DNA from: Flavobacteriales bacterium
GTDB lineage: Bacteria; Bacteroidota; Bacteroidia; Flavobacteriales_F; PHOS-HE28
Length of the DNA stretch: 64,000 bases
Assembly (NCBI GenBank): GCA_035325445.1
Contig: DAOKZW010000002.1
Coordinates: forward strand, 5,826 to 69,825
Direction: 5' to 3'
This document shows, one piece after another, positions 4,501 to 51,041 of this stretch. The translations under genes and the position numbers were made by a program. The notes beneath the pieces were generated by a model. The model searched no databases. It was given only the letters and a program-made list of their open reading frames with translations, and had not been told where the DNA came from. Position 1 is the stretch's first letter; the number at the start of each line of letters is the position of its first letter.

Positions 4501-7500
4501 CCCTTCCATGTGGTGCAGGACAACCTGGCCTGGCCACGGGTGCCCGGCACACCACGCATGGCGGGCGTATCCTCATTCGGCGTGGGGGGCACCAATGCGC
4601 ATGTGATCCTCGCCGAACCGCCCGTTACCGCGGCCTCCGGCGCATCACGCAGCAAGCAGCTCTTCCTGCTCAGCGCCAAAAGCAAGGCCAGCCTCGACGC
4701 CATGACCGACAACCTCCGCCAATGGATGGAGGACAACGCGGAAACATCATTGGCCGATGCCGCATTCACCTTGCAGGTGGGGCGCCGCCATTTCAAGCAC
4801 CGCCGCCTGATCGTGGGCGGAAGCCACCAGGAAGTGGCCCGGGCCATCGCCGACAAGGATGCCGCCCTCATGGGCACCCGCGAACTCACCGAAGCAGCTC
4901 CCGGCGTGGTCTTCATGTTCCCCGGGCAAGGCTCGCAGTACGTGAACATGGGCCGCGACCTGTGGGAGAGTGAGCCGGTCTTCAAAAAGCATTTCGACAA
5001 GTGCATCCACCTCTTCAGCAAAGAGCTGGGCACGGACCTGCGGGCCATCATCTTCCCGAAACCGGGTGAAGAGGAGAAGGCCGCCGAACAACTCAAGCAA
5101 ACGGTGTACACCCAGGCCGGGCTGTTCACCATGCACTACAGCCTGGCCCAACTGTGGATGGACTGGGGCATCAGGCCGGACGCCCTGATGGGCCACAGCA
5201 TCGGCGAGTTCGCGGCCGCCTGCCTCGCCGGCATCTTCTCGTTGGAGGATGCCGTGAAGCTGGTGGCCAACCGTGGACGCATGATGCAGGAACTGCCCGG
5301 TGGCAGCATGCTCAGCGTGCGCGCCGCAGAGGAGGATGTGGCCAAGCGCCTGCCCGAAGGATGCAGCATCGCCGCCAACAACGGTCCGCAACTCTGCGTG
5401 GCCAGCGGCCCACATGAAGCCATCGCCAAGCTGCAGGCCGAGCTGGAGAAGGAAGAGATCACTTGCAAGTTGCTGGTGACCAGCCACGCCTTCCATAGCC
5501 CGATGATGGAACCGATGGTGGAACCCTACCGCAAGGTGGTGGAAGGCGTGCAATTGAACGCCCCGCGCATCCCCATCATCAGCACCGTGACGGCCGAATG
5601 GCTGAAGGATGACGAGGCCACCTCGCCCACGTATTGGAGCGACCACGTGCGGGCCACCGTGCGTTTTGCCCAAGCCGTGAAGTTCGCATGGCAGGATGCG
5701 GACCCCGCCGACACCAAGGTTGTGGCGGGCTCGCGCGTGATGCTTGAAGTGGGACCGCGTACCACGGCAACCACGTTGGCGCGCCAGCAAAGCACCGATC
5801 CCAAGAAACAAACGGCCGTGTCCTCGCTTGGGGCCGAGGCCGGCAACGGCGCTGAATTGGCGCAACTGCTGAAGGCCGTCGGGGGATTGTGGCAGTCCGG
5901 CATTTCCATCGATTGGGAAAAGTTCCACGGCCAAGAGGAACGCCGCCGGATCAGCATGCCCACCTACGCCTTTGAGCGCATCCGGCACTGGGTGGAGCCC
6001 AATGCCCCCCTGATGGTGGACGGGCACCGTACGGCGGCCGCTACCGCGAGCACCACCGCGAACACAGCGATCGTGGATGCCAGCCTCAGCGCCAAGGACC
6101 AATTGATCGCACAGATCAAGCACCTGCTCGAAGAAAGCTCTGGCCTGGAGTTGGCCAATGCCAGCAACGAGGACACCTTCCTGGAGATGGGCCTCGATTC
6201 CCTCTTCCTGACCCAAGTGGCCACTTCCCTGTCCAAGAAGTTCGGGGTGAAGATCAGCTTCCGGCAGCTCAACGAGGAACTGCCCAACCTGGACAAGCTT
6301 GCGGACCACATCCTGCCACATTGGACGGCCGGGGCGGCAAGTGCCCAAGCACCCGCCGCCAAGGGCGTGGCCGGCGAAGGAAGCCAAGCCACGGGCACCA
6401 ACGCGCTCGAGGATGCGCCCGAACTGAAGAAGGTCTTTGGCGCACAAGCCCGGATCAGCAAGGAGAAGGTGGACGACTTCACGCCCGAGCAGCGCGCCTG
6501 GTTCGACGACTTCGTGAAGCGCTACACCGCGAAGACCGCCAAGAGCAAGGCATTCACCCAGCAACATCGGGCGCACATGGCCGACCCGCGGGTGGTCACC
6601 GGTTTCAAGCCGCAAACCAAGGAACTGACCTACCAAGTGGTGGTGGACCGCAGCACCGGCTGCTACCTGTGGGATATCGACGGGAACAAATACGTGGACA
6701 TCCTGAGCGGCTTCGGCAGCTCCATGTTCGGGTACATGCCCGACTTTGTGAAGGAGGCGCTGCACAAGCAAGTGGACCTGAGCGCGGAGATCGGCCCCAT
6801 GCACCCCTTGGCGGCCGAGGTGAGCGAACTGCTCTGTGAATTGACGGGACAGGAACGCGCGGCGGTGTGCAACACGGGCTCCGAGGCGGTGCTTGGCGCC
6901 ATGCGCATGGCACGCACCGTAACGGGCCGCAGCCTGATCATCTCCTTCAGCGGCAGCTACCACGGCATCAACGACGAGGTGATCATCCGCGGCAGCAAGA
7001 GCAAGAAGAGCTATCCCGGCGCGCCGGGCATCATGCCCGAGGCCGTGCAGAACATGTTGGTGCTGGACTACGGCACGCCCGAGAGCCTGGAGATCATCAA
7101 GGAGCGCTGCCATGAGGCCGCCGCCATCCTGGTGGAGCCCGTGCAAAGCCGCCGCATGGAATTCAGGCCCGTGGACTTCCTGCGCGAGTTGCGCCGCATC
7201 ACCAAGGAACATGGCACCGCGCTGATCTTCGATGAGGTGATCACCGGCTTCCGCACGCACCCCAACGGCGTACAGGCCCTGTTCGGCATCCAGGCCGACA
7301 TCGGCACCTACGGCAAGGTGATCGGAGGCGGCATGCCCATCGGCGCCATGATCGGCAAGCGCGAATGGATGGATGCCCTCGACGGCGGCCACTGGCAGTT
7401 CGGCGACGACAGCGTGCCCGAGGCCGGCGTGACCTATTTCGCAGGCACCTTCGTGCGCCATCCGCTCACCATGGCCGCCATGAAGGCCTCGCTGCAACAC

Positions 7501-38088: not shown

Positions 38089-39957
38089 ATGAACTGCCTT
38101 TCCGTGGAGCGCATCAGCAAGCGCTATGGCCCCCGCCTGCTTTTCGAGAACATCTCCTTCGGGCTGGAGAAAGGCCAGAAAACGGCCATCGTGGCGCGCA
38201 ACGGCACCGGCAAGAGCACGCTGCTGAAGTGCATCGCCGGGGTGGAGAAGCCGGACGAGGGCATCATCACCTTCAACAAGGGCCTGCGCGTGGGCTACCT
38301 GGACCAGAACGTGGAGATGACCGCCACGCACTCGCTGGTGGACGAGATGCTGGACCGCGACGACCCGGTGTCGAACGCCATCCGCACCTACGAGCACTTG
38401 TCGGCCAAGGGAAGCCAAGGACCCGAACTGGAGGCCGCCATTGCGCGCATCACCGAGCTGGGCGCATGGGACCACGAGGCCCGCATCAAGCGGCTGCTGT
38501 TCCAGTTCGGCCTGCGCGACCTGGAGCAGCCCGTGAACACCCTCAGCGGCGGCCAGCAGAAGCGGGTGGCCATGGCCAAGGTGCTCATCGACATGCCCGA
38601 CGTGCTGATCCTGGACGAGCCCACCAACCACCTCGACCTGCACATGATCGAGCAGCTCGAGGAGGAACTGTCGGCACCGAACGTCACGCTCCTGCTGGTC
38701 ACCCACGACCGCTGGTTCCTGGACAACGTGTGCGACGAGATCATCGAGATGGAGTTCGGCTCCTTCACGCGATTCAAGGGCAACTACAGCTACTACGTGG
38801 AAAAGAAGGCCCTGCTGGAGGAAGTGCGCGATGCCACCCAGCAGCACCTGCGCGGACTGGCCCGCAAGGAATTGGAGTGGGTGCGAAAGATGCCCCGCGC
38901 ACGCGGCACCAAAAGCAAAAGCCGCCTGCAGGCCTACGACACGCTGAAGGACCTCGCCGGCCGCAGCTACGACCAGGAGCAGGTGAGCCTCGACATCAAA
39001 ACCACCCGCCTGGGCGGCAAGGTGATCGAGACGCGCAACCTTACCAAGAGCTTCGGCGACAAGAAGATCGTGGAGCACTTCAACTACTCCATCAAGGCCG
39101 GCGACCGCATCGGCGTGGTGGGGCCCAACGGCATCGGCAAGAGCACCTTCATCGACCTGCTCACACGCAAAACAGAGCCCGACGCCGGCAAGGTCACCAT
39201 CGGCGATACCGTGGTGCTCGGCATCTTCGGACAGCAGGGCCTGCAACTGAAGGATGACAAGCGCATCATCGAGGTGGTGCGCGACATCGCCGAGGCCATA
39301 CCACTCAGCAAGGGACGCACCCTCACCGCCGCGCAGCTTTTGGAGCGCTTCCTCTTCGACAAGGAACAGCAATACCAGTACGTGAGCACCCTCAGCGGTG
39401 GCGAGAAGCGCCGCCTCTACCTGTGCACCGTGCTGATGAAAAACCCCAACGTGCTGGTGCTGGACGAGCCCACCAACGACCTCGACATCGCCACGCTCAA
39501 CGCACTGGAGGACTTCCTCACGGACCTCGACATCTGCCTGCTCATCGTCAGCCACGACCGCTTCTTCATGGACAAGCTCTGCACCAAGCTGCTGGTGTTC
39601 GAGGGCGACGGCGTGATCAAGGAATGGGTACACACCTACACCGAGCTGCGCGAGTGGCAGAAGGAGCAGGAACGTGCGGCGAAAGAGGCGCGGGAGAAGG
39701 AGGCCAGGAAGGAGAAGGAAGTCAAGAAGGGCGCGCCGTCGGGCAAGCTCACCTACGCCGAACGCATAGAGCTGCGCAAGATCGACCAGCAGCTGCCCAA
39801 GCTGGAGCAAAAGAAAACCGAGCTGCTCGCCGAGATGGCCGAAAAGGCCGCCGACCACCACGCCGTGATGGAACTCTCGATCCAGCTGGAGAAGACGACT
39901 TCGGAGCTGGAGCGATTGGGGGATCGATGGCTGGAGCTGAGCGAGAAGGGAGAGTGA
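38089..39957 (+). CDS. ABC-F family ATPase (tandem ABC domains, no TM)
   Basis: Two nucleotide-binding domains: ARNGTGKSTLLK / LSGGQQKRVAMAKVL / LILDEPTNHLD and GPNGIGKSTFIDLL / LSGGEKRRLYLCTVL / LVLDEPTNDLD. Charged coiled-coil C-terminal extension. Confidence 0.9.
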   Translation: MNCLSVERISKRYGPRLLFENISFGLEKGQKTAIVARNGTGKSTLLKCIAGVEKPDEGIITFNKGLRVGYLDQNVEMTATHSLVDEMLDRDDPVSNAIRTYEHLSAKGSQGPELEAAIARITELGAWDHEARIKRLLFQFGLRDLEQPVNTLSGGQQKRVAMAKVLIDMPDVLILDEPTNHLDLHMIEQLEEELSAPNVTLLLVTHDRWFLDNVCDEIIEMEFGSFTRFKGNYSYYVEKKALLEEVRDATQQHLRGLARKELEWVRKMPRARGTKSKSRLQAYDTLKDLAGRSYDQEQVSLDIKTTRLGGKVIETRNLTKSFGDKKIVEHFNYSIKAGDRIGVVGPNGIGKSTFIDLLTRKTEPDAGKVTIGDTVVLGIFGQQGLQLKDDKRIIEVVRDIAEAIPLSKGRTLTAAQLLERFLFDKEQQYQYVSTLSGGEKRRLYLCTVLMKNPNVLVLDEPTNDLDIATLNALEDFLTDLDICLLIVSHDRFFMDKLCTKLLVFEGDGVIKEWVHTYTELREWQKEQERAAKEAREKEARKEKEVKKGAPSGKLTYAERIELRKIDQQLPKLEQKKTELLAEMAEKAADHHAVMELSIQLEKTTSELERLGDRWLELSEKGE

Positions 39958-40045: not shown

Positions 40046-40318
40046 TCATTGTTCCCACTCCCCCAAATGCGCCCGCATCAGGCTCTTGAAGAGCTTGCCA
40101 TGGTTCGGGACGCGCAGGTGTAGCAGTTCATGCACGATCACATAGTCCTGGAACTTGAGGGGTTTATGCAGGAGTTCGCTATTGAAATTCAAGTGGCCTT
40201 TCGTGGAGCAGCTGGCCCACTTGTGGCGCATAGGGCGGATGCCCAGCCACACCACCTCCACACCGATCTTCTCCGACCAGTCACGGACGCGTTGCTTGAA
40301 GGCGGCCTTGGCGTCCAT
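40046..40318 (-). CDS. YgjP-like metal-dependent hydrolase (DUF45), unusually short (90 aa)
   Basis: HEXXH motif in YVIVHELLHLRVPNHG preceded by WASCSTKGHLNFNSELL, the conserved C-terminal half of DUF45. ATG shares one nucleotide with the hsdR stop at 40318. Missing about 100 N-terminal residues relative to typical family members. Confidence 0.6.
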   Translation of the reverse strand: MDAKAAFKQRVRDWSEKIGVEVVWLGIRPMRHKWASCSTKGHLNFNSELLHKPLKFQDYVIVHELLHLRVPNHGKLFKSLMRAHLGEWEQ

Positions 40319-43300
40319 CAGATGCGGTCTGCTTTCTCCAGCAACGTGAATAACTCATCCACCAGCCGCGCCACCAGTATTTCGTCGTCCACCTGGCCGT
40401 AAATGGCGAAGGTGACCTTGGAGCGCAGCTCGCGCAGTTCTTTCTCACTGGTCTTCCAGTGCGGGAAGGCCACGAAGGCGTCCTTGATCTTGCGGCTCAC
40501 CGTCTCGCTTTCGGGCACCTGGGCATCCAGCAGGGTGCGGTACACGAAGTAGGTAAGCCCATCGAAGCCCTTCTCGGCCTGCTCCCGTTTGCGGTCCTCA
40601 TTTTGTTGCACGAGGCGTAGCAGATCATCCAGCGCCTCTTTCGTATCGGACTGGCGGCTTTCGAAGCTCTCCTGCACCGCCTTGGCGCGTTCGGCCATGG
40701 CGATCAGGAAGGGGTCGTCGCTTTCGGACTCGGCCTTCTTCTCGATGCTCTTGACCAAGTTGATCACCTTGGTACCGTCACCCGCATTCTTCTGCTTGAT
40801 CAGCTCGATGGTGCGCTCGTTGATCTCCACCAGCTCCAGCGGCGCGTTCACGTTGTAGGTGCCCACGTGTTCCTGCACCAGGCTGTTCGTCTTGCGCTGG
40901 AACTCCCGGTCCACCTCCACACGCTTGGTGTAGGCCTTGCGCACCACGTCGTAGATGGCGCTCAGCGTGGCATAGGGCTCGATGTAGGGGCGCAGGAAGG
41001 CATCGGGGCTGATGATCTCATACAGCATCTCCACTTCCTTGTACGCCTTGAAGAACTCCTTGCGGCGTTCCGGGTCGCGGAAGTGCTCGATCAGCGTGTC
41101 CACGTCGCGGTCGTCGAAGCGGCCGCCCACCAGCGCCAGGTAGGCGGGTACCTTCTGCTCCATCTTGTTCTTGAACAGACCCTTCAGCAGGGCGATGTCC
41201 TTCACGATGGCATTGACCTCGTCACTATCAAAGGCCAGCGCTTTCTCCAACTTGTCGAAGATGCCCACGAAGTCCAGCACGAAGCCGTGGGGCTTCACCA
41301 TCTCGGCCTGCTCGTTCTCATACGGACGGTTCACCCGGGCGATGGCCTGCAGCAGTGTGTGGTCGCGCATGGGCTTGTCCAGGTACATGGCGTAAAGCAG
41401 CGGCGCATCGTAGCCGGTGAGCAGCTTCTCGGTGACGATGAGGATCTTGGGCTGCTGGTCCAGTTTGGTGAAGGCCTTGCGGATCTGCCGCTCCTTCTTC
41501 TCGTCCAGGTGGAATTCCTTCAGCGCGGCGCTGTCGTTGTTGTTGCCGGTGTACACTACGGCGCTGTACTCGGGCGGCAGGTACTTGTCCAGCGCGTGCT
41601 TGTACAGGGCGCAGGCCTCGCGGTCCACGCCTACGAGGAAGGCCTTGTAGCCGAGCGGCTCCACGTTCTCGGTGTAGTGCTTCGCCACGAACTCGGCCAC
41701 CTTGGGGATGCGCTCCCTGCCCTTCAGGAAGTTCTTCAGGTTCACGGCGCGGTCCAGCACCTTGTTCAGGTGCTCGATGTCCGCCAGGCCCTCGGCCTCG
41801 GCCAGCGAGAGGAACTCCTTGTCCAGCGTTTCGTGCGGCACCAGCAGCTCGTTCGGCGCCAGGTTGTAGTACAGCGGCAATGTGGTGCCGTCGCTGATGC
41901 TGTCGGCGATGCTGTACTTGTGCAGGTAGCCTTTGTCGTCCTCCCCGCCGAAGGTCTTGAAGGTGCCACGTCCGTAGGCGGTCTTGTCGATGGGTGTGCC
42001 GGTGAAGCCGATGTAACTCGCGTTCGGCAATCCGGCCATGAGGAAGTTGCCCAGGTCGCCGCCGGTGGTGCGGTGCGCCTCGTCGATCAGCACGTAGATG
42101 TTCTTCCGCGTGTTGATGTTTGCCGGCATGTCGCGGAACTTGTGCACCATGCACACGATGATGCCGCGGTAGTCGTCCTTCAGCAGCTTGTTCAGCCGGG
42201 CGATGCTCTCGGCGTGCTCGATGTTGCCCAGGCCCAGCGCCGCGAGGTTCTTCAGCATCTGGTCCTCCAGCTCGTTGCGGTCGATCATCAGCAGCACCGT
42301 GGGCTTGTCCGCCTCGGGGGCCTTGAAGAGCAGCTCGGCGGCCTTGATCATGGTGAAGGTCTTGCCGCTGCCCTGCGTGTGCCACACCAGCCCGCGCCGC
42401 CGTTGCGGGTCCAGCGCGCGGTGCACCACGCGCTCCACGGCCGTGGTCTGGTGCTGGCGCAGGATGTACTTGTTCAGCTCCTCATCCTTCTCGGCGAAGA
42501 CAATGAAGTCCTTCAGCAGGGCCAGCACCTGGGGGATGGCGCAGAAGCTTTTCACCTTGGCCTCCAGTCGGCCGGGGGTGTAGGATGGCGGACCTCCTGG
42601 TCCGCCCGAGATCCCGGTGCTATGCGGCGGACCGGGAGGTCCGCCTTCCGTCAATGCGTCCTTCTCGTAGAGCAGGTACTCACCCTCCTTCAGCCCGCTC
42701 TTCACCGGATTGTTGCGGATGTAATCACACACCTGCTCAAAGTGGTCCTCGTTGCGGATCAGCCGGTCCCAGTACTCGTCCATCCAAAGCGAACCGGTCT
42801 TACCCAGGCGCTTATTCACTTCACGTGCGCTGAAGCCCTTCCATGACTTCACGATCTCACCGATCGTGTGGCCGTTCAGCGGGCGGAACAGCACATGCAC
42901 GTGGTTCGGCATCACCACGTAGCTCACGACTTCATAGCGGTCGCCGTCGAAGTGAAGGATCGCATCACCAACAATGCGGGCCAACTCCGGCTTCCGGAAG
43001 GGGCACGAGCCTTTGCCGGCGTCCAGCCACTTGTCCATGCGGCGGCTGAAGCGGTCGAAATGCTCCAGTTCGATGGCTTCGGTCCACGGTTCGGGGTGTT
43101 CGCGCAACCACGCATCGCGCTCGGCTTTCCATTCATCCAAAACTTCACGTGGAAGAGAGTCGCCCATGCGCCACGTCACGGAGCAGTACACGCCGGGTTG
43201 GTGCCAATGCGGTACACGGTGCTCTTTCGGGTTGACGGAGGAGTACGGGTCGAAGAAGGGGCTTTCCGGGATGGCGGACATTCCTGGGACGGCGGACATT

Positions 43301-44091
43301 CCTGTCCGCCCAGTGCTCCGTGGCGGACTGGAAAGTCCGCCTTCCTCCCCCCGTAGGATTTTCCACTCGAAGATGTTGCGGTACACCGTATTCCAGGTCA
43401 CCCCGTACTTGAAGCCGATGGCATCGGTGGCGGTGAAGAGCTGCTGGGGCACCATTACCTCGGGCGTTTCGCGGTGGTAGCGCCGGATCTGGTCGATGCC
43501 CAGGGCGATGCCCTCGTCCTTGGTGGCGTTCTTGCACTCCACCACCAGCACGGGGATGCCGTTGATGAGGAAGACCACATCCTGCCGCGTGCTGTGGTGG
43601 CCGTTGTGCGTTACCCACTCCTCGGTGACCTCGTAGATATTCCTGTCGGATGGCGGACTTTCTTGTCCGCCCGAGACTCCGGCCACACCCGTGCTCACGC
43701 GCGGACTGGAAAGTCCGCGTTCCAAGACCGCACCGTAATCGATGAGCACCAGGTCGCGCTCGCGGTCCTCTTCGTGGTCGAAGAACTTGCCTTGGTTGCG
43801 CAGGTACTGGAGGAACTCGCGGTTGCCGTAGATGTCCGTGTGCAGGTGGCGCAAGCGGCCCGGCAGGGCACCGGGAGCCTCGGTGTAGCGCGGGTTGAAG
43901 CGCCGCACCTGCGCATCCAGCACCTCTTCGAAATAGAGGCTGGCACCCCTGGCCCGTTCACTGCCCGTAGCGGCGGCGTTGAAACCCCGGCGCCGCTCGG
44001 CGGTTTCGCGCGGCACCACGGCCCAGCCCACCTCCTTGGCGTAGGCCAGGATGCGCGCTTGAACGGTCTTGTGTTCGCCGGGGGTGGGCAT
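40318..44091 (-). CDS. hsdR: type I restriction enzyme R subunit (HsdR) carrying three in-frame REP insertions and an in-frame RayT-like transposase domain
   Basis: N-terminal PD-(D/E)xK nuclease (DVVFLINGIPVLVVECK), helicase motif I HTQGSGKTFTM, DEAH-type LIDEAHR, motif VI region, C-terminal helical domain. The 1257-aa ORF is continuous. About 290 extra residues (aa 251-510) plus a 25-aa insert at aa 126-150 are not HsdR-like. Confidence 0.85.
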   Translation of the reverse strand: MPTPGEHKTVQARILAYAKEVGWAVVPRETAERRRGFNAAATGSERARGASLYFEEVLDAQVRRFNPRYTEAPGALPGRLRHLHTDIYGNREFLQYLRNQGKFFDHEEDRERDLVLIDYGAVLERGLSSPRVSTGVAGVSGGQESPPSDRNIYEVTEEWVTHNGHHSTRQDVVFLINGIPVLVVECKNATKDEGIALGIDQIRRYHRETPEVMVPQQLFTATDAIGFKYGVTWNTVYRNIFEWKILRGEEGGLSSPPRSTGRTGMSAVPGMSAIPESPFFDPYSSVNPKEHRVPHWHQPGVYCSVTWRMGDSLPREVLDEWKAERDAWLREHPEPWTEAIELEHFDRFSRRMDKWLDAGKGSCPFRKPELARIVGDAILHFDGDRYEVVSYVVMPNHVHVLFRPLNGHTIGEIVKSWKGFSAREVNKRLGKTGSLWMDEYWDRLIRNEDHFEQVCDYIRNNPVKSGLKEGEYLLYEKDALTEGGPPGPPHSTGISGGPGGPPSYTPGRLEAKVKSFCAIPQVLALLKDFIVFAEKDEELNKYILRQHQTTAVERVVHRALDPQRRRGLVWHTQGSGKTFTMIKAAELLFKAPEADKPTVLLMIDRNELEDQMLKNLAALGLGNIEHAESIARLNKLLKDDYRGIIVCMVHKFRDMPANINTRKNIYVLIDEAHRTTGGDLGNFLMAGLPNASYIGFTGTPIDKTAYGRGTFKTFGGEDDKGYLHKYSIADSISDGTTLPLYYNLAPNELLVPHETLDKEFLSLAEAEGLADIEHLNKVLDRAVNLKNFLKGRERIPKVAEFVAKHYTENVEPLGYKAFLVGVDREACALYKHALDKYLPPEYSAVVYTGNNNDSAALKEFHLDEKKERQIRKAFTKLDQQPKILIVTEKLLTGYDAPLLYAMYLDKPMRDHTLLQAIARVNRPYENEQAEMVKPHGFVLDFVGIFDKLEKALAFDSDEVNAIVKDIALLKGLFKNKMEQKVPAYLALVGGRFDDRDVDTLIEHFRDPERRKEFFKAYKEVEMLYEIISPDAFLRPYIEPYATLSAIYDVVRKAYTKRVEVDREFQRKTNSLVQEHVGTYNVNAPLELVEINERTIELIKQKNAGDGTKVINLVKSIEKKAESESDDPFLIAMAERAKAVQESFESRQSDTKEALDDLLRLVQQNEDRKREQAEKGFDGLTYFVYRTLLDAQVPESETVSRKIKDAFVAFPHWKTSEKELRELRSKVTFAIYGQVDDEILVARLVDELFTLLEKADRI
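42587..42645. repeat. REP-like palindromic doublet (inside hsdR, in-frame)
   Basis: GGCGGACCTCCTGGTCCGCC ... GGCGGACCGGGAGGTCCGCC: two perfect 8-bp-stem hairpins 19 nt apart. Confidence 0.75.
42646..43260 (-). mobile_element. RayT / IS200-like Y1 HUH tyrosine transposase domain, in-frame inside hsdR, flanked by REP doublets
   Basis: Residues about 278-482 of the hsdR ORF. HUH motif VVMPNHVHVLF and catalytic-Tyr helix FEQVCDYIRNNPVKSGL. No homology to HsdR. Confidence 0.6.
43273..43341. repeat. REP-like palindromic element (inside hsdR, in-frame)
   Basis: GGCGGACATTCCTGGGAC GGCGGACATTCCTGTCCGCC cagtgctccgt GGCGGACTGGAAAGTCCGCC. Translates as SSPPRSTGRTGMSAVPGMSAIPESP. Confidence 0.75.
43652..43718. 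repeat. REP-like palindromic doublet (inside hsdR nuclease domain, in-frame)
   Basis: GGCGGACTTTCTTGTCCGCC ... GCGGACTGGAAAGTCCGC. Translates as LSSPRVSTGVAGVSGGQESPPSDR. Confidence 0.7.
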
Positions 44092-44094
44092 GGT

Positions 44095-46029
44095 TTATAC
44101 TGTCGGCCAATCTTCAGGTACCAGCTTAAGACCACCGCGCCAACGTTCGCGTATAGTGTCCTGGTACCAATTCTCCTGGAACTCGGCGTGCTCCGTCATG
44201 ATAACTTGAAGCCCCGGTGCCACTTCCTGAACAAGGTCATAGATCAGCTTGAACATCCTTTTCAAGTCCTCCCTATCATCGCCTTTTAGCTCAACCACGT
44301 TGTCTCTTGAAACATCTGGTGGGAAGTACACCTGTGAAGGCTGGTCCAGAAAAAGGAAATGAGGAACAGGACGACGTTGCATTGTAAACCACTTGTGAAG
44401 GGCAAGGTGGCCTATTAAATGATAACCTACCCAGTTCTCACCACTGCCCATCTTGTCCATTGTAATCGCTCCATTGGAAGTTGCCGCAAACACCGTGAGT
44501 TTGTTCACATTTAGGCGTAAGGGATACTTTGAATGTTCGAGCTCCAACCTCTTCGCCCAGATGGACATGTCTTCCGCCAGGATGGAGACGATTGATTCAA
44601 GCCGCTCCTTGATGTCCTCGTCCGACAACTTCTCCTCAAACTCTGCAACTTCAAGCTGCAGGAGCTTCGATTGTCTTTCCAGGTCTAGTGTATTGGGTAA
44701 GTCGGGCAAACTTTCCAAGTACAGACTGATGCGACCAAGGATCAGAGCCCGGAGCGATACATCGTCGCGTAATTGCTTGAGCTTCTCATCAGCCTGAACA
44801 ACCGCGGCCATCGACTCTCGATTCTTACGCAAACTCTCATTCAAGCCGCTAATCTTCGATTGAGTCTCTGCGATAGACTTCTCTACCTGAGGTAGGTTAC
44901 GTTGTACTCTATTCAGTTGGTCAGCCACCTTAGAAATGGAGTCAGTGATGCTCGTGGCGATGGGCAGGTTAGACGTATCCGCCAAACCTTGCTCACACAA
45001 CGGACAGACGTGCGCTTCACCCTGGCTCAATAACCCTATGCTCACCAGCCTTGCCTTCTGTTCCTTAGCCTCTGAAGTGAATCCTACTTCAGCATCCGCA
45101 ATTGATTGAATCGCCGAAAGTTGTGCTTGGAGGTGGCCTCGCTCCGCCAAGAGTCTCTCGCGTTCAGATGCTAGCTTCTCGTACTCGCCGGCATCCGTGC
45201 CCTTGGCGTCTAGCACCGACACACTGGCCTGGCTTGCTTTATGCAGATGTGCAACGAGTTCGTTCCAGTCAGAAGTATCCGGGGCTTGGCTCAAGCCAGC
45301 CTCCCGAGCTTGCGCTAGCAGCGAAGCGGCTTTGCCGATTCCTTCGCCGCGAATTGACCGTAGCTCGTTCAGCTTCCTCTCAATCGAGCGGAGTTCACCC
45401 TTTAACATTCGAAGCCGCTCTTGATTTGCGACATAATCATCGCTCACTGCGCCTAAAAAGAAGGGCAGTGTATCCTTGAGGGCTTGTGCCTTGAAGGAGT
45501 CGTTCGCCTTGTAGAAGAGCTGCTCCGGTTGATTGATCACATACTGTGGTTGAAAACACAGCATTAAAGCGTGGCGCACGGTAGCGGCAACAGGCAATCG
45601 TGTGTGGCCCGCATCAGGAACGTGAATATTCTCCTTTACACCAGTCCATCCTGTCACTATTGAGATTAGGCCCTCCTTGTTTGTATTCGAGATTAGGTCT
45701 TCGAACGCCGGGATAGCGATCTCTCGGCCAATTGCAACGTAACACTCCTCCGAGTAGTCTCCGTCCACCCGCGGCGCTTTGCGGGCAATGAAGGCTTCCC
45801 CGTCATCTAGCTTGAGCCGCAAACCGAACCATGAAACGGCGGAGCGAATAATACCATAAGGCACCTTGCATTTGCCACTACCCATGCAGAAGTCAACAAT
45901 TGATATCAGTGCTGACTTGCCAGTCTTTGAGGCGCCCGTTATGACGTTTACCTCGCCAGGAGTGAATGGGAGCTTACGAACTCGTCCATCATGCGAGTAA
46001 AGCACCAAGTCGTGTATTTGAATGCTCAT
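44095..46029 (-). CDS. SMC/Rad50-like ABC ATPase with coiled coil and CxxC zinc hook (DUF3732-like; candidate ABC-3C ATPase)
   Basis: Walker A VITGASKTGKSAL at N-terminus. About 300-aa heptad-rich middle with CPLCEQ hook. C-terminal signature-like MGSGENW, Walker B/D-loop HFLFLDQPSQ, H-loop IMTEHA. Start set at the Met of MSIQIHDL (CAT 46027-46029), overlapping the upstream stop by 4 nt. Confidence 0.7.
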   Translation of the reverse strand: MSIQIHDLVLYSHDGRVRKLPFTPGEVNVITGASKTGKSALISIVDFCMGSGKCKVPYGIIRSAVSWFGLRLKLDDGEAFIARKAPRVDGDYSEECYVAIGREIAIPAFEDLISNTNKEGLISIVTGWTGVKENIHVPDAGHTRLPVAATVRHALMLCFQPQYVINQPEQLFYKANDSFKAQALKDTLPFFLGAVSDDYVANQERLRMLKGELRSIERKLNELRSIRGEGIGKAASLLAQAREAGLSQAPDTSDWNELVAHLHKASQASVSVLDAKGTDAGEYEKLASERERLLAERGHLQAQLSAIQSIADAEVGFTSEAKEQKARLVSIGLLSQGEAHVCPLCEQGLADTSNLPIATSITDSISKVADQLNRVQRNLPQVEKSIAETQSKISGLNESLRKNRESMAAVVQADEKLKQLRDDVSLRALILGRISLYLESLPDLPNTLDLERQSKLLQLEVAEFEEKLSDEDIKERLESIVSILAEDMSIWAKRLELEHSKYPLRLNVNKLTVFAATSNGAITMDKMGSGENWVGYHLIGHLALHKWFTMQRRPVPHFLFLDQPSQVYFPPDVSRDNVVELKGDDREDLKRMFKLIYDLVQEVAPGLQVIMTEHAEFQENWYQDTIRERWRGGLKLVPEDWPTV

Positions 46030-46538
46030 GGTCTCATCCCCAGAAGGGCATATGTTGTTTCTACTGCACCGGCTCGCATGAGCCACCGACCAAGGAACTC
46101 CGCCTTCTTCATACACTCAGCCACCTCATCGGACATATCGCCACTGGCTCGATTGAACACCACCCTATACTTCGCGTTGGGCACAATCACCTCACCTTCG
46201 ATTTGAAATAGACCACTGTTCGATCCGTAGAGGAGCGCTTCCTTCGCGTAAGGAACCAGCTGCAGAGTTCTGAAGGGCAATCCTGCAACCAGCAATGGGT
46301 TGCTCTCTACCCAGGTCGGTATGGATGATCTTACGTTGGTTGGAAGCGACTCTCGCGTCTTCTGATGCAAGATTAGTGGGAGCAAGAGAAAGGCCTCCAA
46401 GTAGTGCAATGCGGTACGTTTTCCCTTAGGATTCTTAAGCGCATCCGTCGCCGCATGCCAGATGATGAAGGCACAGAACCCAGGGTTGAGCAGGAACCGC
46501 TCTTCATGAGGCCGTTGATTCCAAGGCTGCAACGGCAT
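46026..46538 (-). CDS. small hypothetical protein; candidate middle component of a tripartite ABC-3C-like module
   Basis: 170 aa, no recognisable motif. Wedged between the upstream stop (2-nt gap) and the downstream ATPase start (4-nt overlap). Confidence 0.45.
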   Translation of the reverse strand: MPLQPWNQRPHEERFLLNPGFCAFIIWHAATDALKNPKGKRTALHYLEAFLLLPLILHQKTRESLPTNVRSSIPTWVESNPLLVAGLPFRTLQLVPYAKEALLYGSNSGLFQIEGEVIVPNAKYRVVFNRASGDMSDEVAECMKKAEFLGRWLMRAGAVETTYALLGMRP

Positions 46539-46540
46539 AG

Positions 46541-47740
46541 TCAGCTAAGGATTGAAGCCAAGCGGTCCTTGAACTCTGGATGCCAACCGATCCTCATGTC
46601 GTTCGCCAAAATGTGCAATGAGCCACGGGTAATGAACCCATCATGCACGCCGGGTCTTATCCGAGAGTTTTGATTGCCCTGTTCCGCCCATGCCAGCAGA
46701 TCGCTAGCCGCACGCTTCTTCACTTCTTCAGTGGCGCCTGTACCCAGGGTGTCCTCCATCTGGTGGAATACAGCCTCCCATTCCTCAATCAAGGCCCGCT
46801 CATATACGGTAAGGTCGGCTACAAAGAGCAGGTCTTGGCGCAGCCACCTTGAACGCTGTTCAAAGGCTCTGAAATAGTCACGTATTGCTGCACGCAAACG
46901 CTTTGAATGAGAAGTTGCAAGTTCAACTTGCTTAACAAAGGGCAAGCTCTTGTGCGCCTCCGCGGTATCCGTATCAAGTTCAAAGTTCAGCAGGTCATCA
47001 GCAACAGGCAATGAGTCCTGGCGGAATCGATCGCGAACTTCAGTCACCTGCGCTTCAATTTCCTCGGACAGTATTCTACTACTTAACGAAGTGTCCAAGA
47101 GTTGCTGGATAACACGCCTAAACCACCAGCCTTCCAGATACTCAACGAACGTTTCACGATTGTTCTTCCCTGCAGCATAGTGCACTTCTGCCGCAAGAAG
47201 AGAATTGACGCCTTCGATGTCAGGCGCTTGGTCAATGACAAGTACTCGCTCAAGTAGCTCACGGCACTGGCTTGGTTTCCATGCCTTATAGGCGGCGTAT
47301 GCGCTCTCGTTCGTCGCGCTCTCCGAAGTTTGAGCCACGGCCAAAAGTCCCTTCATCGCGCCCTCAACATCTCTGTCTTTCGTTTTCAGCTTTCCTGCAA
47401 TAGAAGCGGCCTGTGCTGTCTCAGAGGTCACGAGGAAGAGCATCGTGTCCTTAGCTAGCTTTCCAGCATTAGTTAGCTCAATCCAAATACGCAGCGTTTT
47501 CCAAAGATCACTGGAGCTGTTCATAAGATTTCCCTTACGGTTCAAATGATGCTTGGTCTGTAGCAGATCCGTTGGCGTGCCAAGCTTCTCGAAAGCAACG
47601 TCATCGAGTGTCTCCACTGAGACACTGAATATTTCGCTGTTCTTCAACCGCTGAAGGCTCCACAACAGTGCACACCGAACCTGGTATAGGTAGCCCAATG
47701 CAGATTCTGCGGCTGAGAATTGCGCTGTTGTATCGGTCAT
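46541..47740 (-). CDS. hypothetical protein; candidate effector with N-terminal restriction-endonuclease-like (Cap4/DUF4297-type) region
   Basis: N-terminus ESALGYLYQVRCALLWSL ... VSVETLDDVAFEK ... LLQTKHH resembles the G-Y-x-Y-Q start and D / (E,Q)xK pattern of PD-(D/E)xK-type Cap4 nuclease domains. ATG overlaps the hsdS stop (ATGA). Confidence 0.45.
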   Translation of the reverse strand: MTDTTAQFSAAESALGYLYQVRCALLWSLQRLKNSEIFSVSVETLDDVAFEKLGTPTDLLQTKHHLNRKGNLMNSSSDLWKTLRIWIELTNAGKLAKDTMLFLVTSETAQAASIAGKLKTKDRDVEGAMKGLLAVAQTSESATNESAYAAYKAWKPSQCRELLERVLVIDQAPDIEGVNSLLAAEVHYAAGKNNRETFVEYLEGWWFRRVIQQLLDTSLSSRILSEEIEAQVTEVRDRFRQDSLPVADDLLNFELDTDTAEAHKSLPFVKQVELATSHSKRLRAAIRDYFRAFEQRSRWLRQDLLFVADLTVYERALIEEWEAVFHQMEDTLGTGATEEVKKRAASDLLAWAEQGNQNSRIRPGVHDGFITRGSLHILANDMRIGWHPEFKDRLASILS

Positions 47741-49017
47741 GCTCGTACTGATGTGTAGTACGTGACTTCTTTAGGAACCCTCACCTTCCCCGTCATCAGC
47801 TCATGAAGCAGGGTGCGGAAGAGGTCTTGGAGTGACGTGAGTTTCGTTCGGTGGTGTTCGCCCTTGCGTTCAATCGCAAGCAAAGCATCTGTGATGCCAT
47901 TCTGCACATCAAGCCCAGGAAGTGGTAGTGGCATACTCCTCACATCGGCCACATTGAGATGGGCTACCGTGAGGCCACTGGCGATCGACTTCATGTGCTT
48001 GCTCAGTACCGGACTGTAGAAGCTGTAGACGAGGAACTCTGGACTAAGCCTAGATCGGTCTGTGCGTATCAGCATGGTTCGTTGCCCCAAGCTGAGTCGC
48101 ATGCCTTCCGGAATGACGCATGCTTCACCTACCGGAGCCTCGCGACTGAACAGAACATCACCTGGTTCGGGCACGGCGCGCCGAACACGATCACGATACT
48201 GCTCCTCGCTCGTGAAGAAGGCTGGTTCCGGCACGAAACGACCATCGCGGATGTTGAAGTTCCGGGCGACGCGTACCCCAGTGGTCAGGAACTTCGGCGT
48301 GGTATGCGGGCAATCGATGACCAGTTCACACACTGACTGCAAAGGCACCACCTCCCAACTCTCCGGCACCAACCCGATCTCGGTCTCCTTCTGGGCTTCG
48401 CCGCGCAGCCCTTCGGTGAAGAGCTTTTGCATCAGGGCCTGCTTCAGCTCGGTGGTGGTGCGGATCAGGCGCTCCTGCTGTTCGATGGCCGATTGCACCG
48501 TGCTGAGCACTTGGGCGATGCGCTGCTGTTCGGCAAGCGGTGGCAGTGGGAGTTCAGACCCGAACACGTCGGATTCACGCACCGCCGGATATCCTGCGCC
48601 ACGTTCCAATCCTGCCATACGTGCTATGAAGCCATCCGTAAGGAGGAATGAGTAGAGGTACCGGGGATCAACCTTGCTCCGGTCGCTCCGAAGCACGCAA
48701 TAGCCTGTGCTAGCGATCTGGCCATCCAGCTTCTCCGGTACTAGCGCCACACGCCTAAGCGTAGGACGGACAGTTGCGAAGAGCACATCGTCCCGGCGTA
48801 TCTCTTTCCGCGCACGGCTCGGCGCATCTTTCCCTACTAGAGAAGCTGACTCTGTGATCTTGAACGATTCATTGGATACGCTGGAAACATCCACATACGC
48901 GAAGCGCTCATGAGGTGCTTTGCGCGGGTCCCGTTGCTTCGCCTTGAGCACTAGGTTCCCGATGCGCTCGCGGCGCCAACCTTGGGGCAAGTCGTATGGA
49001 AGTTCATCCTCCATCAT
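47737..49017 (-). CDS. hsdS: type I restriction-modification specificity subunit HsdS
   Basis: Two target-recognition domains separated by the conserved central helix LPPLAEQQRIAQVL and the C-terminal helix LQDLFRTLLHELMTGKVRV. Start overlaps the hsdM stop (ATGA). Confidence 0.85.
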   Translation of the reverse strand: MMEDELPYDLPQGWRRERIGNLVLKAKQRDPRKAPHERFAYVDVSSVSNESFKITESASLVGKDAPSRARKEIRRDDVLFATVRPTLRRVALVPEKLDGQIASTGYCVLRSDRSKVDPRYLYSFLLTDGFIARMAGLERGAGYPAVRESDVFGSELPLPPLAEQQRIAQVLSTVQSAIEQQERLIRTTTELKQALMQKLFTEGLRGEAQKETEIGLVPESWEVVPLQSVCELVIDCPHTTPKFLTTGVRVARNFNIRDGRFVPEPAFFTSEEQYRDRVRRAVPEPGDVLFSREAPVGEACVIPEGMRLSLGQRTMLIRTDRSRLSPEFLVYSFYSPVLSKHMKSIASGLTVAHLNVADVRSMPLPLPGLDVQNGITDALLAIERKGEHHRTKLTSLQDLFRTLLHELMTGKVRVPKEVTYYTSVRA

Positions 49018-51041
49018 GCCAACTGCTTCAAGATCTTCTTCAGCGCCGCATCCGTTTCCCGCGCCTCGGCCTCAATGGCCTCCAGTTCCTGCACCAGCTC
49101 GGGGATGGGCCGGTAGCTGGTGGCCTCGCCGGTGTGGATGTAGCGGCTGGGCGAGAGGTTGTAGTCGCTCAGTTCGGCCAGTGGCACAATGCGGCTGAGC
49201 TTCTCCTCCTCCTTCCACCCGAGCATCACGTCCGCAATGCGGTCAATGTGCTCGGGCGCCAGGAAGTTCTTGGGCTTGCCCTTCTCGAAGAGCTGGCCGG
49301 CGTTCACCAGCAGCACCTTGCCCTGGCGGGCTGCCGGCTTGGCCCTGCGCAGGAAGAGCACGATGCCCGGCGCGGTGGTGTTGTAGAAGAGGTTGTCCGG
49401 CAGGTAGAGCACGCTCTCCACCAGGTCGTTATCCACGAACCACTTGCGTACCTCGCGCTCCTTGCTGTGGCCATCGTTGCCGCTGCCGCGGCTGGCGGCG
49501 CCGGTATCCAGCACCACGGCGGCGCGGCCGGTCGGCTTCAGGCTAGAGAAGATGTGCTGCGCCCAGCCCCAGTCCGCACTGGCCTTTCCGGGGAAGCCCG
49601 CGCCGGTGGGGAAGCGGTCCAGCTCGTCGTTGGCGTAATCGGCCTCGGTGAACCAATCCTGGTTCCACATGGGGTTGGCCACCACGCGGTCGAAGGTCTT
49701 CAGCCGCCCACGCTCGCGGAACTTGGGGTTCTTGAAGGTGTCGCCGATCTCGATCTGGCCCTGCATGTCATGGATGATCATGTTCATGTTGGCCATGGCC
49801 CAGGTCTCGGCGATGTATTCCTGGCCGTAGAGGCGGAGGGGCGCGTACTTCGGCATGGCAGGCATTCCTGGGCCGGCGGACATTCCTGGGCCGGCGGACA
49901 TTCCTGGGTCGGCGGACATTCCTGTCCGCCCGGTACCGTGTGGCGGACTGAAAAGTCCGCCTACCGAATATGTGGTGCCGCCATCCTTCATGCGCGCCTC
50001 CAATGCGATCTCGCATTTGATCAGCAGGCCGCCGCTGCCGCAGCAGGGGTCGTACACCTCCATGCCGGGCTCGCATTCCAGCACGCGGGCCATCACCTCG
50101 CCCACTTCGCCGGGGGTGTAGAACTCGCCCGCGCTCTGCCCGCCGCCCTCGGCGAACTTGCGGATGAGGTACTCGTAGCTCTTGCCGATGATGTCGGCCT
50201 CCACATCGTTGAGGCCAAGGCGCTTGGTGCTGATGGCCTCGATGAGGTTGCTGAGGCGGTCGTCGGCCAGGTCGCGCTGGCCGTGGGTAGTGGCGTTGAA
50301 GTCCACGCGGTCGATGATGCCCTGCAGCAGCGGGTTGGCCTTGGCCACTTCGCGCAGGTGGGTGGTGAGCTGCTCGCCGATCTTGTCGCTGAGGGTGCGG
50401 ACCACGCTCCACACGGGCTGCTCGGGGTCGGCGGGTTCCAGCGGCAGGTAGAAGCGCACGAGCTTCCTATCGGCTTTTACCAGCCGGAAGGCCTTGGCGC
50501 GGGATCCCACCTCGGCGGCGATGCGGTCCAGCTCATCATCGAACACGTCGCACAGCCGCTTGGTGAAGATGAGCGGCAGGATGTAGTCCTTGTATTTGGG
50601 GGCATCCTTGGCGCCCCGGATGGAGCAGGCGGCATCCCAGATCCAGGTCTCGAGGGATTTGTCGGGGGTGGGCTTGGCAGCCTTCTTCGGGCGGCCGGTC
50701 TTGGTTTTTTCGGCGGGGTCGGGGTCGGTCTTCGCGGACCGGGAGGTCCGCGGGCTCGGTTTGTGGGCGACTTCCTTATCCCCGTCCTGCGCGGACCGGG
50801 AGGTCCGCGGACCGGAGGCTTCCTTTTCCGCGGTCTGCGAGGACCGCGGACCGAGTTTGATGCTGCCGCCTCGCCCGCGCCCGAGGGCGATGGCGCCTTC
50901 GGCGAGGAGCTCGGCTTTTAAGCTTTCGTAGGTGGGCTCGTCCACATCCAGCAGCTCGCGGGCCTTTCCATTACCCAAGCTGGGCGTTTCAGCCAGTAGG
51001 GCGAGCAGGGCTTCCTTGCGGTTGGTATTCTCTTCGGTCAT
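49014..51041 (-). CDS. hsdM: type I restriction-modification N6-adenine DNA methyltransferase HsdM carrying two in-frame REP insertions
   Basis: Motif I VYDPCCGSGGLLIK, FYTPGEVGEVMARVL, motif IV variant VVANPMWNQ, C-terminal HsdM helical region. Continuous 675-aa ORF. Inserts are GGLFSPPHGTGRTGMSADPGMSAGPGMSAGPGMPAMP and the N-terminal region EKEASGPRTSRSAQ ... SPRTSRSAKTDPDP. Confidence 0.85.
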   Translation of the reverse strand: MTEENTNRKEALLALLAETPSLGNGKARELLDVDEPTYESLKAELLAEGAIALGRGRGGSIKLGPRSSQTAEKEASGPRTSRSAQDGDKEVAHKPSPRTSRSAKTDPDPAEKTKTGRPKKAAKPTPDKSLETWIWDAACSIRGAKDAPKYKDYILPLIFTKRLCDVFDDELDRIAAEVGSRAKAFRLVKADRKLVRFYLPLEPADPEQPVWSVVRTLSDKIGEQLTTHLREVAKANPLLQGIIDRVDFNATTHGQRDLADDRLSNLIEAISTKRLGLNDVEADIIGKSYEYLIRKFAEGGGQSAGEFYTPGEVGEVMARVLECEPGMEVYDPCCGSGGLLIKCEIALEARMKDGGTTYSVGGLFSPPHGTGRTGMSADPGMSAGPGMSAGPGMPAMPKYAPLRLYGQEYIAETWAMANMNMIIHDMQGQIEIGDTFKNPKFRERGRLKTFDRVVANPMWNQDWFTEADYANDELDRFPTGAGFPGKASADWGWAQHIFSSLKPTGRAAVVLDTGAASRGSGNDGHSKEREVRKWFVDNDLVESVLYLPDNLFYNTTAPGIVLFLRRAKPAARQGKVLLVNAGQLFEKGKPKNFLAPEHIDRIADVMLGWKEEEKLSRIVPLAELSDYNLSPSRYIHTGEATSYRPIPELVQELEAIEAEARETDAALKKILKQLA
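49855..49961. repeat. REP-like element (inside hsdM, in-frame): 3.5 x 18-bp GGCGGACATTCCTGGGCC units plus two hairpins
   Basis: ggcggacattcctgggcc x3, GGCGGACATTCCTGTCCGCC, GGCGGACTGAAAAGTCCGCC. Same family as the hsdR copies. Confidence 0.8.
50734..50846. repeat. REP-like triple hairpin (inside hsdM 5' region, in-frame)
   Basis: GCGGACCGGGAGGTCCGC at 50734-50751 and 50791-50808, GCGGTCTGCGAGGACCGC at 50829-50846. Confidence 0.7.

Follow-up and report, generated by a model that had tools for sequence, protein, structure and literature searches.

A complete REP-associated tyrosine transposase domain encoded in-frame within the Type I restriction gene hsdR of a Flavobacteriales bacterium

The window analyzed here, i.e. 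a 64,000-nucleotide stretch of a Flavobacteriales bacterium (GenBank contig DAOKZW010000002.1, forward-strand positions 5,826 to 69,825), carries a Type I restriction-modification (R-M) operon with the gene order hsdM-hsdS-(cargo)-hsdR-ygjP; coordinates below are those of the window, and all features of the operon lie on its minus strand. The hsdR gene (40318..44091) encodes a 1257-aa protein in one uninterrupted frame and includes an extra domain, RayT, of the REP-associated tyrosine transposases (RAYTs, or TnpA_REP; REP: repetitive extragenic palindrome). Pfam places HSDR_N at aa 6-230, SWI2_SNF2/ResIII at aa 542-766 and T1R_D3 at aa 864-941, with a Y1_Tnp match at aa 385-461 (39.3 bits; cutoff 23), and the open reading frame (ORF) as a whole matches the NCBIfam hsdR model TIGR00348 (433 bits; cutoff 285). 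The N-terminal PD-(D/E)xK nuclease domain (aa 1-244; 43360..44091) contains D171, VECK (184-187) and QIRRY (201-205), and its core is 92% identical to that of the insert-free HsdR P0137. The motor and C-terminal part (aa 507-1257; 40318..42573) contains motif I (GSGKT, 42358-42372) and motif II (DEAH, 42073-42084), and its identity to insert-free HsdRs reaches up to 95%. Like a Type I HsdR, the protein thus combines an HSDR_N PD-(D/E)xK nuclease, a QxxxY motif and motifs I and II of superfamily 2 (SF2) helicases, and its gene belongs to the same operon as hsdM and hsdS.

Protein alignment with 120 HsdR homologues, together with a DNA comparison with the insert-free locus L065, delimited the whole insert to 42574..43359. 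It comprises 786 nt or 262 codons in the order REPIN-RayT-REPIN, where a REPIN is an inverted REP doublet, and stands where insert-free HsdR has a linker of four residues, HEEV, which among insert-free orthologues follows the pattern H-[AE]-E-V. Insert-free enzymes (972-980 aa) read IF(T/N)WK-[HD]EEV-GK-LEAKVK, as compared to IFEWK-[262 residues]-GRLEAKVK in the window, and the site is the short linker that joins the HsdR nuclease domain to the SF2 motor. The window protein is 284 residues longer than the 973-aa enzymes, a difference made up of the insert and a 30-residue REPIN within the nuclease domain. All inserts of relatives occupy this one site, between 'IF.WK' and 'G[KR]LEAKVK', and their frame is always open; differing REP arrays make their lengths vary (234-337 aa), the linkers spanning 20-80 aa on the left and 33-100 aa on the right. 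Separately, P0220, an otherwise insert-free HsdR of 1014 aa, carries an unrelated ~40-aa insertion ('LSDPQITQIFTDSEI...HENNLRSSAQSADKYSDVP') in the same nuclease-motor linker, so the site may be generally permissive to repeat-derived insertions.

The RayT/TnpA_REP Y1 HUH domain occupies aa 279-477 (42661..43257). Its HUH motif (H397-V-H399) is encoded at 42895-42903 and its tyrosine motif YIRNNP (aa 457-462, with Y457) at 42706-42723; none of the 71 fusion proteins deviates at either histidine or at the tyrosine. The first PDB match by sequence (phmmer) is 4ER8, the E. coli TnpA_REP. In an AlphaFold2 model of the insert, built from a 63-sequence alignment, the predicted local distance difference test score (pLDDT) exceeds 90 in the core and falls below 50 in both REP-coded linkers. 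The modeled core runs from strand 1 through an inserted helical hairpin to helix/strand-strand(HUH)/helix/strand/helix(Tyr), as in Y1 transposases, with four core strands, and a Foldseek search of the PDB returned 4ER8 first, the next 29 matches all being IS200/IS605 transposases (TnpA). As modeled, the RayT domain is complete and has the Y1 fold; judged by its motifs, it is catalytically intact and apparently active. E. coli TnpA_REP is a monomer that requires a 5′ GTAG and a REP hairpin (PMC3479197), and a monomeric enzyme of this kind can plausibly work as an inserted domain. RayT resembles subclass 2.7 of Quentin 2018 (PMC6006769) in its [ND]HVH, WQ and YI[LR][NQ]NP motifs and in a length of ~213 aa, an assignment made by signature only.

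On the 5′ side of RayT lies a REPIN together with a tandem of an 18-nt half-REP (43264..43345, hairpins at 43291-43310 and 43322-43341), which encodes the left linker 'GGLSSPPRSTGRTGMSAVPGMSAIP' (34 aa of REP-coded sequence) and whose inverted doublet spans 43269-43345. The REPIN on the 3′ side (42583..42649, hairpins at 42587-42606 and 42626-42645) has arms that are 92% complementary and encodes the right linker 'GGPPGPPHSTGISGGPGGPPS'. In a REPtron, a RAYT gene lies between GTAG-type REP doublets of its own, and doublets indeed flank RayT on both sides in the window as well as in all relatives. A first-pass annotation made from the letters of the window had proposed a continuous 1257-aa hsdR ORF, free of stops and frameshifts, with a complete RayT domain set into the nuclease-helicase linker between REP doublets. 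All of this holds, the doublets lying within a few bases of where it had put them, and the Y1_Tnp (PF01797) match and the exact boundaries obtained from insert-free orthologues agree with it. It had missed, however, that the REPs extend beyond the flanks of RayT, with further in-frame copies in the nuclease domain and in hsdM.

The copy in the nuclease domain is a third REPIN, in-frame at 43648..43723 (hairpins at 43652 and 43700; aa 120-149, 'GLSSPRVSTGVAGVSGGQESPPS'), which insert-free orthologues lack. In hsdM (675 aa; 49014..51041), a loop of the methyltransferase domain holds a REPIN (49911-49961) and a 3.4-copy tandem of the 18-nt half-REP (49863-49924), together encoding GMSADPGMSAGPGMSAGPGMPAMP. 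Two single REPs (~50733-50752 and ~50790-50809) in the N-terminal extension or linker of HsdM encode 'GPRTSRSA' and 'SPRTSRSA'. The REPIN in the methyltransferase loop is present in-frame in every RayT-bearing Flavobacteriales operon and at that place in none of the insert-free ones. The hairpin GGCGGAC-N6-GTCCGCC has seven exact copies in the window (0.01 expected) and ten when one stem mismatch is allowed, all ten inside hsdR or hsdM; no copy was found elsewhere in the 64 kb, nor outside the R-M genes of close relatives.

From 70 hairpins of the window and seven close relatives, the REP unit was derived as G[TA][AT]G-GCGGAC-N6-GTCCGC-C, arranged in inverted pairs; the copies in the window's hsdR have the feet GAAG, GATG and AACG. 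The loops fall into two subfamilies, CTCCCG/CGGGAG and TTTCCA/AGGAAT, with usage that is largely uniform per operon (L001, L002 and L009 have only the former, L006 has almost only the latter, and the window is mixed), a pattern that suggests within-operon copying or gene conversion. The hairpin is without a stop codon in all six frames, and the frame in which it is read differs by lineage (GGHSCPP, GGQECPPS, DRNVRAP or RTGMSA). Each complete RayT-bearing locus has 8-11 hairpins, and the window-type hairpin is absent from 47 of 49 insert-free hsdR loci (L010-L058). At the protein level, REP-coded peptides number a median of four per HsdR in ~70 RayT-bearing HsdRs, at least 23 of which have them at additional sites (near aa 40-60, 125-180 and 860-1070), as compared to none in ~50 RayT-free HsdRs. 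REPs strictly co-occur with RayT.

The fusion, which the first-pass annotation had deemed highly unusual, is widespread and not peculiar to this genome. Among the 120 best HsdR homologues, clustered at 90% identity, PF01797 is found at this exact site in ~70 clusters (1202-1353 aa) and is absent from ~50 (972-980 aa). Carriers within the Bacteroidota are Flavobacteriales and other metagenome-assembled genomes (MAGs; L001-L006, L009); others belong to the Verrucomicrobiota, to a Wenzhouxiangella MAG and to Pseudomonadota MAGs, and a named species, Chlorobium phaeobacteroides, has the fusion as UniRef100_B3ELH7 (1345 aa). No close match was found in the plasmid database PLSDB. The recurrence of the same fused design in several phyla speaks for a heritable, selected architecture and not an accident. 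A clade of RayTs that is mainly hsdR-borne was considered and rejected: among the 80 best metagenome RayT loci, an unbiased tblastn sample, two lie in hsdR, both with open junctions, and 78 are stand-alone, which makes the hsdR-borne state a minority habit of a mostly stand-alone clade. The RayT of L070, which adjoins rnhB, is a true stand-alone version with 77% identity to that of the window.

Rearranged forms occur as well, among P0012, P0005, P0004 and P0003. One joins HsdR aa 1-36 to REPs, RayT, REPs and the motor, the nuclease domain being missing, possibly through recombination between REPINs; another consists of HsdR aa 1-36 and RayT followed by a stop; the third is a chimera of DUF1016_N, an HsdR fragment and RayT. 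In addition, stand-alone RayTs of ~200-260 aa (P0004-P0006, P0012, P0032, P0044 and others) bear the name 'type I restriction enzyme R subunit' in Joint Genome Institute (JGI) annotations, a misnaming that possibly stems from annotation transfer off reference HsdRs with an embedded RayT such as B3ELH7.

Selection was gauged by the Nei-Gojobori method on 28 pairs among eight near-clade genes. The ratio of nonsynonymous to synonymous divergence (omega) is 0.093 for RayT (synonymous divergence, dS, 0.93), 0.175 for HsdR-N (dS 0.35) and 0.172 for HsdR-C (dS 0.34); RayT and both HsdR parts are thus under purifying selection. Pairs that include an insert-free HsdR gave similar ratios (0.07-0.25), so the insert has not relaxed the constraint on HsdR. 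These figures bear on whether the locus is a transposon-inactivated hsdR whose frame stays open by chance in GC-rich, stop-poor DNA, or else an assembly error. At a third-position GC content (GC3) of ~0.9 long spurious ORFs are common, many overlapping ORFs are present in the window, and one relative, L071 (9178-12916), is a visibly decayed hsdR::RayT, split into separate ORFs. Yet 13 of the 14 independent loci examined on the DNA level are single open ORFs although their linkers differ greatly in length, all three parts have an omega of 0.09-0.17, and D171, VECK, QIRRY, helicase motifs I and II and the RayT motifs are all kept intact. The assembly error that the first-pass annotation had named as one way in which its reading might fail is contradicted by six further complete hsdR-RayT genes, taken from assemblies of other species, all of which are single open ORFs (1254-1329 aa). 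A dead gene is therefore highly improbable, and a mere assembly error or chance ORF is ruled out by the open frames in independent genomes and the purifying selection on the three parts.

Insert-bearing and insert-free alleles are closely intermingled. In neighbor-joining (NJ) trees, built without bootstraps, the two kinds of allele interleave by HsdR core, and fusion RayTs are interspersed with short ones. Insert-free L066 differs from insert-bearing L001 by a dS of only 0.14 in HsdR-C, as compared to ~0.9 among RayT lineages. A single origin with strict co-divergence is unsupported, given that HsdR and RayT disagree in both NJ trees and dS. Allelic recombination, site-specific insertion and precise excision are all possible routes of gain and loss.

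Such interleaving at shallow divergence is what would be expected if the two alleles were states of one locus, i.e. if RayT acted as a reversible DNA switch by IS200/IS605-like precise excision from single-stranded DNA (ssDNA); homologous recombination between hsd alleles, however, explains it equally well. The empty site of L065 reads GAGGTAGGC, resembling the GTAG tag and the start of a REP. A conserved GTAG target at the empty site was nonetheless rejected, as 31 other insert-free genes are without GTAG there and have GTGG, GTCG, ATCG or others instead. A related proposal has RayT made from an internal start, the fused HsdR being inactive, and the first-pass annotation had likewise offered internal initiation. 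The REP-coded left linker of the window contains two ATG codons (GMSAV and GMSAI), but the left linkers of relatives share no conserved Met, and both HsdR halves are under purifying selection in insert-bearing lineages, which argues for translation by read-through. We consider a switch or a separately expressed RayT distinctly unlikely. Intein-like splicing was ruled out, there being no Hint or intein Pfam match in the protein and the junctions being variable REP-coded peptides.

The explanation we hold to be probable is that of an in-frame hitch-hiking REPIN-RAYT element, a REPtron, in hsdR that is tolerated by both partners. A REPtron would have settled in-frame in the short surface linker between the HsdR nuclease and the SF2 motor. 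As the REP hairpin has no stop in any frame, insertions whose length is a multiple of three are read through; the translated REPs would form disordered Gly/Pro/Ser linkers, from which RayT would hang off the 1257-aa HsdR as an autonomously folding domain. Transcription and translation of hsdR would then serve to express the transposase, and the insertion would cost HsdR little, since nuclease and motor stay on one polypeptide. Inheritance and recombination would pass the element on together with its Type I R-M operon, which is itself widely transferred between phyla, and RayT, or gene conversion between copies, may seed further REPINs at loops of HsdR and HsdM that tolerate insertion, and homogenize them. 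That the fusion is made as a single protein, that RayT is active and that restriction is retained we infer from the intact ORF and from selection; catalysis by RayT on these REPs and the route by which inserts come and go are likewise inferences.

Several observations weigh against this explanation. RayT scores 74.6-78.2 bits with the NCBIfam model REP_Tyr_transpos, under its equivalog cutoff of 80. The REP foot is often GTAG (common in relatives and in the hsdM copy), while others are GAAG, GATG or GAGG. The dS of RayT is ~2.7-fold that of the flanking HsdR (0.93 vs 0.34), and its GC3 is 0.74-0.79 as compared to 0.86-0.97 in HsdR (0.78 vs 0.89-0.91 in the window). Lower GC3 and deeper dS recur in L001, L005, L006 and L009, and part of the dS difference may be compositional, given the lower GC3 of RayT. 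For L005, the nearest sequence is that of the window in HsdR-C and that of L009 in RayT, and the disagreement of pairwise orders, dS and GC3 indicates partly separate histories of insert and host. The protein-database sample is skewed to intact ORFs. Finally, an omega of 0.09 is not obviously expected for a selfish single-copy element with 4-5 REPINs in one operon.

The low omega of RayT, which is below that of HsdR itself, hints at some benefit, and RayT could be an exapted domain that contributes to the R-M operon instead of being merely tolerated. It might nick and join ssDNA in a hairpin-specific manner for defence, mobilize or rearrange the operon and its cargo slot, or diversify HsdR and HsdM surfaces via REPINs. 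Consistent with this are the invariance of the catalytic residues in all 71 fusions, the persistence of the architecture across phyla, the homogenization of REP subtypes per operon and the confinement of REPs to R-M genes in the window and the Flavobacteriales loci, which makes the operon look like the unit of selection. Against it, insert-free sister alleles are about equally common, very close kin and under equal constraint; the RayT clade is mostly found outside hsdR; a conserved interface with HsdR is not evident, the linkers being variable and disordered; and L067, a distant relative, has related REPs between genes outside the operon too, scattered like an ordinary REPIN population. On balance we find a contribution of RayT to the operon rather unlikely.

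Its fullest form, in which the RayT-REPIN life cycle would run wholly inside a horizontally mobile Type I R-M operon with RayT exapted as a working HsdR domain, is similarly doubtful. Were it true, hairpin-specific ssDNA cleavage and joining by RayT would, for instance, write in-frame REPIN cassettes that vary the surfaces of HsdR and HsdM; alternatively, RayT would mobilize or rearrange the operon and its cargo slot, or toggle hsdR by precise excision.

The remainder of the operon comprises hsdS (47737..49017; Pfam Methylase_S), the cargo between hsdS and hsdR, and the gene downstream of hsdR. The cargo (44095-47740) consists of three genes forming an ABC-three-component (ABC-3C) system, namely a CTD7 effector (399 aa), an MC3 middle component (170 aa) and a DUF3732/LmuB_C ATPase (673 aa), with a GC content of ~50% as compared to ~62% in the flanking hsd genes. 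In relatives, the same slot holds Thoeris SIR2/TIR genes, HipA, KilA-N/RhuM or an SMC-like ATPase. As the defence cargo differs between relatives, the hsdS-hsdR gap acts as a swappable defence-cargo site. Overlapping the hsdR stop codon is a 90-aa fragment of a YgjP-like/SprT-like metallopeptidase with an HELLH motif (40046-40318), whose Pfam match is limited to the C-terminal half of the profile; relatives have versions of 102-110 aa at the same place. Outside the operon, the intergenic segment 37873-38057, upstream of a gene for an ABC-F type ATPase (38089-39957), contains tandem repeats unrelated to the REPs: a 27-nt unit, AGTTGGCAGGTGGCAGAGGGCAGGTGC, in 3.4 copies, TGGCAGG in 2.9 and CTAACAA in four.

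REPtron and REPIN-RAYT systems have reportedly been treated by Nunvar in 2010, by Bertels and Rainey in 2011 and by Ton-Hoang in 2012. The present element shares with E. coli TnpA_REP (4ER8) and its kind the NHVH and YIRxNP motifs and inverted REP doublets with a 5′ GTAG-like tetranucleotide. It differs in that RayT has neither a start nor a stop of its own and would be translated inside a host protein, and in that the window's REPs are all intragenic within one R-M operon, known populations being dispersed and extragenic. By the definition of Bertels & Rainey, a REPIN population has many dispersed extragenic copies, as compared to ten of ten hairpins that are intragenic within the 64-kb window.

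Short palindromes in-frame in functional genes are themselves familiar. Rickettsia palindromic elements (RPEs) and the GTAG/CGTC REPs of Opitutus terrae and others lie in-frame in functional ORFs (Di Nocera 2013, PMC3733652), where, singly or as dimers, they encode 20-80 extra residues, often in proteins of DNA metabolism (PMC3733652). In contrast to these, the insert described here adds a complete transposase gene, and the decorated genes belong to the transposase's own host operon. With IS200/IS605 elements it shares the transposase fold, subterminal hairpins instead of terminal inverted repeats, and a predicted ssDNA chemistry; unlike them it is without tnpB, is not multi-copy in the available sequence and has no conserved target tetranucleotide at the empty site. 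Like inteins and homing-endonuclease insertions, it is an in-frame coding element, apparently selfish, that recurs at a single site, alleles with and without it existing side by side; unlike inteins it has no Hint or splicing domain, and its junctions have no conserved splice residues. Lack of a Hint domain and variable junctions suggest that the insert stays in the mature protein. Finally, the host protein shares the HSDR_N PD-(D/E)xK nuclease, QxxxY, SF2 motor and helical domain with HsdRs of EcoR124I-type architecture, to which RayT with its REP-coded linkers at the nuclease-motor junction and the REPIN in a nuclease-domain loop are additions.

A full-text literature search returned no description of a host protein that has a RAYT among its internal domains, nor of any link to HsdR; thus, in-frame palindromic elements, REPtrons and REPIN-RAYT systems are known, and a RAYT embedded in HsdR is apparently undescribed. 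RAYTs are widely seen as domesticated transposases that occur in a single copy and are of obscure benefit to the cell. Here, in several phyla, strong purifying selection maintains a RAYT whose motifs indicate intact catalysis as a domain embedded in a defence enzyme; this hsdR-embedded class has escaped surveys of Y1 transposases in which 'too long' proteins are discarded. With natural insert-free alleles as ready controls, the role of a RAYT in vivo, the way in which REPINs are copied and any preference of theirs for sites in cis, and the extent to which foreign sequence is tolerated at the nuclease-motor junction of a Type I motor subunit now become testable.

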